Shown piece after piece: positions 10,339 to 63,162 of a stretch of 64,000 nucleotides of DNA. Under the pieces are notes generated by a model. That model searched no databases, was not told the origin of the DNA, and saw only the letters and a program-made list of their open reading frames with translations. The stretch is from positions 5,456,001-5,520,000 of the forward strand of contig NC_043002.1 of assembly GCF_006345805.1 (NCBI RefSeq). Reading direction: 5' to 3'. Numbering within the stretch: the stretch's first letter is position 1; every line of letters starts with the position of its first letter. The position numbers and the translations under genes are program-made. The stretch comes from Octopus sinensis. Taxonomy: Eukaryota.

Positions 10339-10659
10339 CTGCACAGTAAAAATAACAATATCAAAAAAGAAAACGACAAAAAAATGAGCAAAAGAAGAAA
10401 AACAAACAGTTCAGGGAAACTAGTTGTAGTCTGTGTTGGAAAAAAATCATTTAGTGATGCAAAATTCGCTACATTTTTATGCTGTGGGATGCGAAAATAT
10501 TGACATTTCGGTATCTTGAGTGAAGTTCATTCCTAAGAAGGACTTTACTTGAACGATCAATATTTTTGCATGTATTCAGATTTGAAGAATTTCTTTAACA
10601 CTACCGTATGGGGATTTTTCACCAAGTTTATGGATTGCATGATATATTCTCTTTTTCTT

Positions 10660-11745
10660 TACACAGGATGAATTTTGATTTGTCTCTGTCCCTTTTACTG
10701 GAAAAGATCCAGTAAAAGGGACAGCGTCAAATCAAAATTCAAGAGTTGTTGAAGACCTAGCAAAAGAAAATACTGGTCGCAATATAACTTGTGATAAATA
10801 TTTTTCCAAGTCTAGGATTGGCTTGAGAACAAGAAAACTCCTTTAGTTGGAACAGTTAAAAAGAACAGAGTGGAACTTCCAAGTGCTTTCACAAATGGAA
10901 AAGAAAGAGAAATCAGCAGCAGCACAATATTTAAATTTCAAAAGGGTTCTATGATCCTATCTTATTGTCCCAAGAAAAATTATGTTGTCATATTTATGAG
11001 TACAATTCACTCTCAGCCTTCAATTGATTCAAAAAGTGCTGAAAATAAACCTGAAGTTATTACATGTTGCAACAAAACAAAAGGAGGAGTAGATACCCCA
11101 GATAAGATGGTAAGGTCATGCGCTTGCAAAAGAATGGCTCGAAGATGGCCTATGGTTATATTCTACGACATGATTGATATAAGTGCAGTGAATGCTTTCA
11201 ATGTTGCTAAATAGCTTCACTTGTAAAGCTTTGAAGATAAGAGAAGACAGTGCTTAATTCAGTTAGGAAAGGAACTTGCTGGAGTTAATGCTAAACTAGG
11301 ATCTGACAAACAATCTTCTAGTTCCGCTTACATTTCTCAACCAAATAAGAAAAGACGATCTTCAATCTCATTTGAGATTCCTCAGCCAAAGAAAAAGGGA
11401 AGATGTTCTTTGTGTGGCCCCCAAAAAAGACAGGAAAACACGTACTACATGTAAGAATTGTAATATCCATGTTTGCCAAGAATATTCCAATGTTGTCTGC
11501 ATTCACTGCCATGAAGAACGGTAATTCTATATTCGTGTAATTTTTAAAATTTATAATATATTCTGTAAGCTGTATTTATTTATCAAAATTTGTGAGAAAC
11601 AGTAATTCTTCATTCACCTGATAGCATATATAATGTAGCTAAAAAATAGTGGTGGTTTGAATAAAATTTAATTAAAAGAAAAATATTGGGTCCATTGGGC
11701 CAAGTTGGTAATTAGTGACATACATGTTCTCTGGTAGACCAAGGG
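10660..11745 (+). mobile_element. Decayed piggyBac element (PGBD-like transposase pseudogene) with right end
   Basis: GRNITCD-like motif near 10775. ORF 10870-11214 has KPEVI..NKTKGGVD..D.MV...RRWPMVIFY.MIDI. Cys-rich tail (RCSLC..TCKNCNIHVCQE..C..C) at about 11400-11515. End AGGG followed by TTAA at 11746-11749. Frameshifts and stops present; left end not found. Confidence 0.88.
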
Positions 11746-23351: not shown

Positions 23352-23464
23352 CCGTTTTCTTCTGGCACATGAATGGCTTCAGTGAGTGACACTCTCCTGA
23401 CAACCATATGTTGACAGTCTTAATATATGGGTCGGCAAAGGCACAGGTGTTGTTCTTCACTTGT
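23352..23464 (-). CDS. Exon d, end of CTLD1: QVKNNTCAFADPYIKTVNIWLSGECHSLKPFMCQKKT(G)
   Basis: Acceptor atatacAG and donor GTAGGT. 113 nt, phase 2 to 1. C...W-x-x-x-x-C...F-x-C C-terminal CTLD pattern. Confidence 0.92.
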
Positions 23465-25764: not shown

Positions 25765-25800
<36 letters not shown>

Positions 25801-25802
<2 letters not shown>

Positions 25803-26056
25803 CGTAAGGGGGATCAGCCATCTGAATGTGGCTAGGGACAGGGCGGGTGGTGGGGGTGTTACTGATGCTTTTAGCCCCAGGCGATCATCGACGTCACCAG
25901 AAGGACCGACACCATATCGGTGTCCTTGTTAGCCTGTAAAGGGAGATCATCCTCCCTCGAAGATACGAATACTACATACGGACCGGTTTCGAGGTCATTG
26001 CCTCTTATCAACGTATGGTAAGCACCGTTCCTCGATGAAGGATTCCCTCTACAGGC

Positions 26057-26058
<2 letters not shown>
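25801..26058 (-). mobile_element. About 260-bp GC-richer insertion within (TA)n carrying an HHR inside a larger hairpin
   Basis: Bounded by (TA)n on both sides. The IR tagcctgtaaaggga (from about 25930) pairs with tccctctacaggcta (ends 26058) and encloses the HHR. Confidence 0.65.
25975..26017 (-). ncRNA. Minimal type I hammerhead ribozyme motif (U3-A8 core variant)
   Basis: Minus strand reads CAUACG-UUGAUAA-GAGG-CAAUGA-CCUC-GAAAC-CG-GUC-CGUAUG. Perfect 6-bp stem I, 4-bp stem II, palindromic stem III (ACCGGU) and GUC cleavage triplet. Confidence 0.8.
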
Positions 26059-26112
<54 letters not shown>

Positions 26113-27040: not shown

Positions 27041-27132
27041 TCTTTAATGAATGGAAACCGACCTTCATTCCAAAAATTTATAGACACTTGTTTACCGTTA
27101 GTCCACTGCCATTCGTAGGCTCCTTTGTCTTC
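27041..27132 (-). CDS. Exon c, CTLD1: EDKGAYEWQWTNGKQVSINFWNEGRFPFIK(E)
   Basis: Acceptor tatattctAG and donor GTGAGT. 92 nt, phase 0 to 2. W-x-W-x-[DN]G and FW motifs of a CTLD. Confidence 0.92.
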
Positions 27133-32037: not shown

Positions 32038-32866
32038 TAGCAGAATTGCCCGGCGTTGCTCGGGGCTGAATTGCTTGAAAGTACTGTTAATGATTGCACT
32101 GAATTATGATGATTATTCAGGCAAATATTGATATAAGTTTACGCTGGGAGATAAGGTCTTAACGATCAAACGTGTGCCATTGCATTGTTTTGGGGGAACC
32201 AAATTTCTGATGAGCATTATAGGGGCACCAACTTTAAGTTTGAGAAAGTGTGGTGGTAGTCCGGGGTGCTCAAAGGAATTGAGTACCTCTATTGGATAGT
32301 TGATGACGTCCTCTGGGTCAGGAGTTGTATCGATAGACTGATATACATAGACTTCCCCAGACATCATTAATATGGTGAACAGTTTTATTCCTCGGGGCCA
32401 GTATAGCCTTTTTGCCAATCCAATCAATATTCTGATAATTAGCTTGTAGATCTGGGAACACTGCATCTCTGAGATCAGAAGGCGTCTTAACAATGTTACA
32501 AATGGAATCGATGGCAATATTACCATTTTCATCCCCTGGTATTTTGCCTTCGCCAAGTGCAAGGAGGGTGTGAGGAAATGCTGCTGATGTGATATTACGT
32601 CGCATATGAGCACGCATATTGGTGTGAAGTTTGAGAGTTACTTCCCTTTATTTTTAAAAATATGCATTAAAATGGAAAAAAATGATGGTAAATTATTTGT
32701 AAAATCATAGACTCATCGTAGACGCGCGCTAATACCCAGAAGGGCTCGATATGAAACACGACTATAAGATACCCGGTTTTGGTTAAACTGCATCGTAAAA
32801 TGTGGGAGTAGTTAGGAATCTAAATCGGAGTAGACAGACACACAACCTTTCTTTTATATATAAATA
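32037..32866 (-). mobile_element. Helitron deletion derivative retaining a Pif1-type helicase fragment (about 32140-32635)
   Basis: Shares its 5' about 230 bp and hairpin-CTAG end with copies 1 and 2. Frameshifted translations LHTNMR...LL.LGEG...VFPDL...W...AILAPRN and YP.E.LNS....GLPPH.L.LKVGAPIML.RNL.PPK.CNGTRL.V are RepHel helicase motifs. Confidence 0.9.
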
Positions 32867-62245: not shown

Positions 62246-62928
62246 TGTATATATCGTTTGCAACAGATATTAGTGTGCGATACAAAACGCAACTAGATAG
62301 AAATCATTTGTTAATGGCATAAACATGTTGTTTGAGAATTGTGGAAGTCATCAAGTTCTCTTTATACGACACAGTATAACAAAAATCGAGGATGGGCGAG
62401 TAGTGCCAGTTTTATCGATGCCATATTTCAACAACCCCCGAAAAGTTGAAAAACAAATTCATCTAATACGACTCGCTACTATTTTGCCAAACACCGACGA
62501 CGTGGAAGATCTAATGATTTCGGTCAAGGTCACACATTTAGTTGGAAGCGTATAGTTGATTTGACGGACATCGGTGCGTGACTGGTACTTTGTTTCATCA
62601 ACCCCATAAGGATGAAAGTCAAAGTCTCAAGGAGGATTTTTAAGTAAGACTGAAAAGAGGCGTAACCAATGCATTTTATCTTTGACTCAAGAAATTTTTC
62701 TGTTGCTCTACCGATTCTGCGAATTCTCTGCCCTTCTTGGAAGATACATTGGAAACCAAAATATACACAAAGCTTATACACAGAGACACTGAACACCAGG
62801 GGTAAAGCAACATCAGTAATTAAAAAAATAATATAACGAACCAACTGCATTGCCCCTATGAGATCATTCGATCTACTAGAAGTAGCAGTCAAAAATTAGC
62901 TTAAATTACATCCGACCATCTGAAAAGT

Positions 62929-63162
62929 GTTGAGTTGCCTAGATATTCGTGCATGACATTCACCAAATCTTTTGATCCAGTAGCCTTGAACTTCATCTGG
63001 TCCCGGGGCCTTCCAGTTGCTCATCTTTTTGCTGATTTCCTTCACTACCCTAACTTAAATGACTAATTCTGCTTGTTTTGTACAGACTACTGTTTGCTTC
63101 AGTTCTTGCAACCATTCAGCATCCTTCTTGTGCTCCTTGTCTTTGCTCCAGATGTCATTCCC
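62929..63162 (-). mobile_element. R4/Dong-like non-LTR retrotransposon fragment (pre-RT region)
   Basis: Translation NDIWSKDKEHKKDAEWLQEL...*...KKMSNWKAPGPDEVQGYWIKRF...HARI..QLN, with one stop codon. Confidence 0.8.

Follow-up and report, generated by a model that had tools for sequence, protein, structure and literature searches.

We consider it highly probable that the hammerhead found in this region of the Octopus sinensis genome belongs to a single, truncated copy of a non-coding 360-nt repeat with a type I hammerhead (family A), which is likely a passenger of Penelope-like elements (PLEs), i.e. a non-LTR retrozyme, and which is predicted to cut mainly as paired copies. The copy occupies 25802..26059 on the minus strand of the window, that is the whole stretch of 64,000 nt that was analysed; it is non-coding and 5'-truncated, comprises 258 of the 360 nt and ends ~180 nt downstream of the predicted scission site. 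The locus itself is ordinary and the U3-A8 pair in its core is already known. The real interest lies in the series of C-G, C·A and U-A cores present among the copies of this repeat, and especially in the amplified mismatch C3·A8.

Minus-strand positions 26017-25975 represent a type I hammerhead with a 6-bp stem I, a 4-bp stem II, a 2-bp palindromic stem III and a U3-A8 core. The sequence reads as reported in a preliminary description of this DNA, and stems I and II are intact at 6 bp and 4 bp. In the direction of the minus strand, the motif consists of the loop-1 trinucleotide UAC (26020-26018) with the 5' strand of stem I (26017-26012; together 26012..26020), the core UUGAUAA (26005..26011; U3 at 26011, A8 at 26006), stem II (26004-26001 paired with 25994-25991) with a 6-nt loop 2 (25991..26004), GAAA (25990-25987) followed by the palindromic stem III ACCGGU and C17 (25981..25990), and the 3' strand of stem I (25980-25975) with the unpaired U of loop 1 (25974..25980). 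Stem III has 2 bp and a CG loop, and GUC ends at 25981, placing the predicted scission between 25981 and 25980. U4, G5 and A6, a 3-8 pair, A9, G12, A13 and A14, the A15.1-U16.1 pair and H17 are all present, U3-A8 replacing C3-G8. A hammerhead descriptor matched once in the window as compared to no match in 100 simulated windows, and in the predicted monomer fold stem I pairs with a probability of 0.79-1.0 and stem II with one of 0.96-0.97, which agrees with the earlier view of a structurally intact hammerhead. The outer repeat, proposed to close the motif into a long hairpin, indeed does so: the minus strand of 25930..26058 folds into an imperfect 129-nt hairpin that extends stem I (predicted -61.2 kcal/mol, z = -7.1; none of 200 shuffled sequences folded equally well) and shows compensatory changes between subfamilies at its base.

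The assignment to a named Rfam family is less straightforward. With a 159-nt query, Hammerhead_HH9 (RF02275) was hit at E = 7e-5 and 26.2 bits, i.e. under its gathering score of 52. The window copy shares with this family the type I topology as well as the pattern of loop 1 (UAC/U) and loop 2, whereas it has no closed stem III and is a young repeat, HH9 being conserved and single-copy. A scan of the whole window at the gathering score and a 2-kb scan returned no hammerhead family, merely miRNA noise driven by (TA)n. Since canonical C3-G8 copies of locus L041 likewise gave no match at E <= 1, the Rfam models appear to suit family A poorly.

A search of the 2.7-Gb genome showed that the hammerhead is not special to this locus. 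The 258-nt unit yielded 1547 candidates, and the 40 of them that were scored gave at least 58 matches with 90-100% identity. Patterns with the exact core and with stems II and III as in the window copy matched 299 times genome-wide, and reversed-pattern controls had no match. The window copy is thus one truncated member of a scattered repeat, and its 99% identity to copies on other contigs indicates that it is young. Other family A copies run ~100 nt further and are arranged head to tail with a period of 360 nt, in tandems with both cores intact, for instance in L013/L016, L041 and L055. The window copy is a solo monomer, and no second family A copy was found inside the window. The unit had earlier been described as 260 bp inside (TA)n; the (TA)n does flank it on both sides, but the unit is 258 nt long and truncated from a 360-nt period.

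An active hammerhead had been proposed, and stems I and II form as anticipated, but it had been overlooked that stem III cannot form in the monomer. Its predicted probability is 0 there, and dimers are predicted to form it both in cis and in trans. The lowest-energy structure predicted for the natural L016 tandem is a double hammerhead at -190.5 kcal/mol, 6.5 kcal/mol lower than two monomer hairpins (-184.0 kcal/mol), and two free window monomers are predicted to gain 7.9 kcal/mol on pairing. In a related family both bases of the palindrome loop are changed and the sequence is still palindromic. The 6-bp/4-bp form matches the architecture of the canonical metazoan type I hammerhead (PMC4209133), for which dimer-dependent behaviour has been published (PMC4209133, PMC6765202). 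For the axolotl, Cervera and de la Peña 2020 (PMC7229834) report weak monomers and efficient dimers.

We compiled the ends of 66 distinct insertions from 82 loci, comprising 106 3' ends and 107 5' starts of arms. Nearly all 3' ends (102/106) fall at two sites, +176-180 (58) or +222-228 (44) counted from the scission site. These two fixed ends are ~46 nt apart, and the window copy uses the one at ~+180. TA runs follow the 3' end in 77/106 cases. Inverted insertions make up 40 of the 66, and 36 of these 40 pair one short with one long end. The 5' starts of arms are scattered: two of 107 lie at the scission site as compared to 2.1 expected, in a set of loci picked by similarity or intact core, so that arms starting at the cut are under-sampled. 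Arms longer than 365 nt account for 52/107, and their templates therefore ran through the ribozyme.

Tandem and inverted 5'-truncated copies, a one-sided tail and microsatellite targets are the pattern of PLE mobilisation. PMC8557442 describes partial tandems for PLEs as well as inversion of the 5' arm, a tail on one side and a bias towards microsatellites, and according to PMC11167929, two internal starts of reverse transcription and AT-rich cleavage were shown for the element PAc. According to these two sources and PMC4209133, PLEs with hammerheads in their pseudo-LTRs (pLTRs) share with family A the truncation at the 5' end, partial tandems, inversion of the 5' arm, a tail on one side and AT-rich or (TA)n targets. 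Family A differs from them in that it has no ORF, in a tail of ~46 nt as compared to 30-40 nt, and in a canonical 6-bp/4-bp ribozyme with loop contacts in place of the minimal pLTR form. Candidate partners exist in the genome: intact PLE ORFs of 775-883 aa carry GIY-YIG over the cut-off and RVT_1 just under it, with 150 of 5029 GIY-YIG candidates scored. Among the unit-bearing loci and the 40 PLE loci examined, no autonomous PLE was seen to share sequence with the unit. A related unit occurs in two of these 40 loci, apparently as separate insertions, and PLE protein fragments occur in four unit-bearing loci. On this sequence evidence, the PLE partner of family A is a putative one.

It is improbable that the unit is instead a pLTR belonging to an autonomous PLE, the copies that bear its ORF having been missed and the window holding a solo 5'-truncated end. 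The PLE-type ends would fit, and with many PLE families and the fraction of candidates scored such copies might escape notice. However, the sequence upstream of the unit is a further head-to-tail unit with the 360-nt spacing. Moreover, in L021, the one inspected of the four loci with PLE fragments, a microsatellite and the fragment's own UTR lie between the fragment and the unit; the unit there was considered as part of a PLE and rejected, being a separate insertion in (TA)n. Likewise, the unit beside a PLE ORF in L117 was considered as the pLTR of the partner and turned out to represent a non-coding family of its own (~350 nt, 2098 candidates).

In the passenger mechanism that we favour, tandem copies would be transcribed and their palindromic stem III would pair them into a double hammerhead, whose cutting would set free linear or circular RNA of unit length. 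A PLE protein with RT and GIY-YIG domains would nick AT-rich DNA such as (TA)n, and reverse transcription would begin at either of the two internal sites, continue across the hammerhead of a multimeric or circular template and end at random points. The window copy would have landed in this way in intronic (TA)n, its U3-A8 pair being inherited from a master copy. The clean two-site 3' ends support PLE enzymes as movers of animal retrozymes. In two studies (PMC7229834; Li, Clavereau and Pollet 2026, bioRxiv 10.64898/2026.07.22.740005), animal non-LTR retrozymes are, like family A, non-coding units of ~360 nt, each with a single canonical type I hammerhead, that occur as dimers and solo monomers with a dimer-type stem III and are proposed to be non-autonomous PLE derivatives. 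The former gives a GC content of <45%, slightly exceeded by the unit with 47%. Retrozymes form long satellites there, whereas family A mostly forms short arrays with an inverted arm; family A also differs in its U3-A8 majority and C3·A8 subfamily, and is known here from DNA, not from RNA circles.

The preliminary description suggested counting the copies and their core variants. This was done, and the U-A core is the majority: among the 299 exact-core matches, positions 3 and 8 are U-A in 193, C-G in 83, C·A in 21 and U·G in two, and hence Watson-Crick in 276. When the heptamer was left free, the matches listed (100 of 281) comprised 60 U-A, 33 C-G, 5 C·A, one U·G and one A·A. The double change had been read as a sign of selection on activity. 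The predominance of paired states is in line with this idea, but the history of the pair weakens it. A tree was built with positions 3 and 8 masked from 90 of 94 copies (three dropped for short cover and one as a duplicate). The 53 U-A rows lie together on one side of a single branch (support 100/98) and every C3 row on the other, so that the covariation amounts to one event, which probably proceeded via C·A. As a single event on the tree, U3-A8 is weak evidence for selection. We attempted to root the tree with the related family B, which is 66% identical and mostly C3-G8, but its branch was long (~0.86 changes per column) and placed the root at a U-A tip of zero length. With so distant an outgroup the tree gives no direction of change, and as another related family, C, has U3-A8, a reversion to C-G is equally possible as the forward route.

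The C·A copies form a 12-row clade (100/94) that includes tandems; two more C·A rows stand at the fork beside the branch between U-A and C3, and one decayed C·A row lies within a C-G array. Private changes amount to 0.0083 per site, from which decay would yield at most ~2 copies of either single state. The two U·G matches fit this expectation, and the 21 C·A matches, of which 12 are insertions on large contigs and six lie on small contigs and are possible duplicates, exceed it. Judged from its sequences, the mismatched form was itself mobile and amplified, which weakens the argument from double change to selection. Hence the data do not support U3-A8 as surprising or specific to this locus: it is the state of most copies, goes back to one branch and was known in nature. 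According to Perreault et al. 2011 (PMC3088659), the U3-A8 covariation is natural and, per earlier work cited there, active in vitro, and Cervera and de la Peña found U3-A8 in ~1,300 Schistosoma hits (PMC4209133). As compared to the natural cases described in PMC3088659, family A holds C-G, C·A and U-A as coexisting subfamilies.

It is unlikely, though compatible with the passenger explanation, as it bears on the ribozyme step alone, that the hammerhead fold persists chiefly for its RNA structure or as a site of protein binding, with cleavage weak or dispensable for spread and the covariation partly a historical accident. The amplified C3·A8 subfamily points in this direction, as do the lack of surplus 5' starts where scission is predicted and the observation in PMC11167929 that mutants of the PAc hammerhead left insertion in vitro unaffected. 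Conservation of the catalytic core argues to the contrary. By hand count among the matches listed (100 of 281), U4, A6 and A9 are invariant in 100/100 copies and G5 is present in 99. With GAAACCGGUC left free, 87/100 copies are intact (hand count among the matches listed, 100 of 307); nine of the 13 deviants listed alter the CG loop, and G12, A15.1 and U16.1 are altered only sporadically among these matches. Furthermore, three related families and one PLE 3' motif retain the palindrome as well as the 3-8 pairing. At the level of subfamilies, the conservation of the core is only borderline: shared variants occur in 47/227 free columns, so that 9-13 core columns would lack them by chance with a probability of 0.12-0.05.

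In 31 distinct copies, 93% of structure cells pair as compared to 38-49% in slid controls. Double-change cells number 24 versus 8.7 after shuffling, but these come from only five pairs, are inflated by relatedness and refer to the structure of the window copy. Stem I is 99.5% paired across copies, with one-sided changes only, and the invariance of stem II is partly forced by the search patterns.

Two further hammerhead families resemble family A. Family B (L117:5437-5772; L123-L152) has a period of ~350 nt, a tandem and inverted layout like that of family A, C3-G8 in most copies listed and a conserved ~38-nt tail common to both families. Family C (L153-L167) gave 50 matches, all with A8 and, in 15/15 fetched, with U3; it shares stem II with family A, differs in stem I and has the palindrome ACUAGU. 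Its members are mostly single and older-looking copies. In one of them (L163 ~1500-1530; G000:C1:199447991-199448019), a bare core from U3 to exactly C17 is bordered by (TA)n on both sides; on its 3' side it ends right at the scission site, and stem I could be formed by the TA flanks. A U3-A8 hammerhead-like motif is also present 3' of the ORF in 20/40 PLE loci, with two pairs of loci overlapping. This motif (L113:4941 and 19 further loci) is AU-rich, has the palindrome ACAUGU and lies ~870 nt past the ORF. The L113-type PLE family is abundant, with many equal-scoring copies and intact 781-aa ORFs, and with a 479-aa upstream ORF in two loci.

It is possible, albeit rather doubtful, that we see a compensatory change caught midway, in which C-G, C·A and U-A were each amplified as subfamilies of one 360-nt retrozyme. 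If this were true, the C·A stage would mean that retrozymes spread on with a crippled core via protein-assisted or slow cleavage. On this reading, the recurrence of U3-A8 in another retrozyme family of this genome and in the 3' motif of an autonomous PLE would hint at host-level selection for this core. Family A offers naturally occurring alleles (C-G, C·A, U-A) against a single sequence background, which makes testable whether hammerhead cleavage is required for the spread of retrozymes and PLEs.

At the locus itself, the hammerhead lies, as first proposed, in an intron and on the transcribed strand. The minus-strand intron 27040-23465 (donor GTGAGT, acceptor tacag, i.e. GT-AG ends) is flanked by exons at 27041..27132 and 23352..23464 of a C-type-lectin-like gene, which join in an open frame. 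Since this host gene is on the minus strand, the hammerhead would be part of its transcript. Lectin_C matched four of seven open stretches tested (E 0.0015-0.15), all under the cut-off and as partial domains, and the two exons flanking the element gave no domain match when searched singly. The gene appears to extend over 1041-30561 of the window (minus strand) with several C-type lectin exons; we take it to be mannose-receptor-like. The target microsatellite is (TA)17 at 25768..25801 on the 3' side of the element, and (TA)26 follows at 26060..26112 on the 5' side. The break lies inside the element's own TATATA, which meets the target (TA)n at the truncation point as a microhomology.

As stem III needs a partner and the window holds no second copy, cutting of the host pre-mRNA by the window copy is likely to be minimal or inefficient; on the folding model, cleavage would occur only in trans or with help of a protein. 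The PAc hammerhead needed its protein (PMC11167929). The copy is likely a neutral passenger within the intronic (TA)n. That it has been domesticated to cut the lectin pre-mRNA, like the conserved intronic HH9/HH10 of amniotes, is very improbable. Its sense orientation, the agreement of its loop-1 and loop-2 letters with the consensus of HH9, the best Rfam match, and the gain predicted for the trans dimer could be cited in favour. Yet the copy is young and one among hundreds, its 2-bp stem III contrasts with the closed helix of HH9, and it has no partner within the window. Intronic copies are moreover common for retrozymes (~43% in Xenopus; Li, Clavereau and Pollet 2026).

A search of the literature on octopus hammerhead ribozymes and Penelope retrotransposons, which covered papers on core variants in part, turned up no description of family A. 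Contigs from four sequencing runs, none recorded as RNA, cover the unit and showed no joints and no piled ends, which has no bearing on expression; a short loose-end motif from such contigs had no match in the genome. In run X12, probably DNA, the summed contig depth over 25816-25900 was tens of times that over the ribozyme. This summed depth, which is not a copy number, hints at a far larger family that shares the 3' part of the unit. Elsewhere in the window, decayed stretches at 10579-11451, 32113-32647 and 62899-63054 look by eye like, and are presumably remnants of, a piggyBac-type transposase, a Helitron helicase and a LINE RT, respectively.
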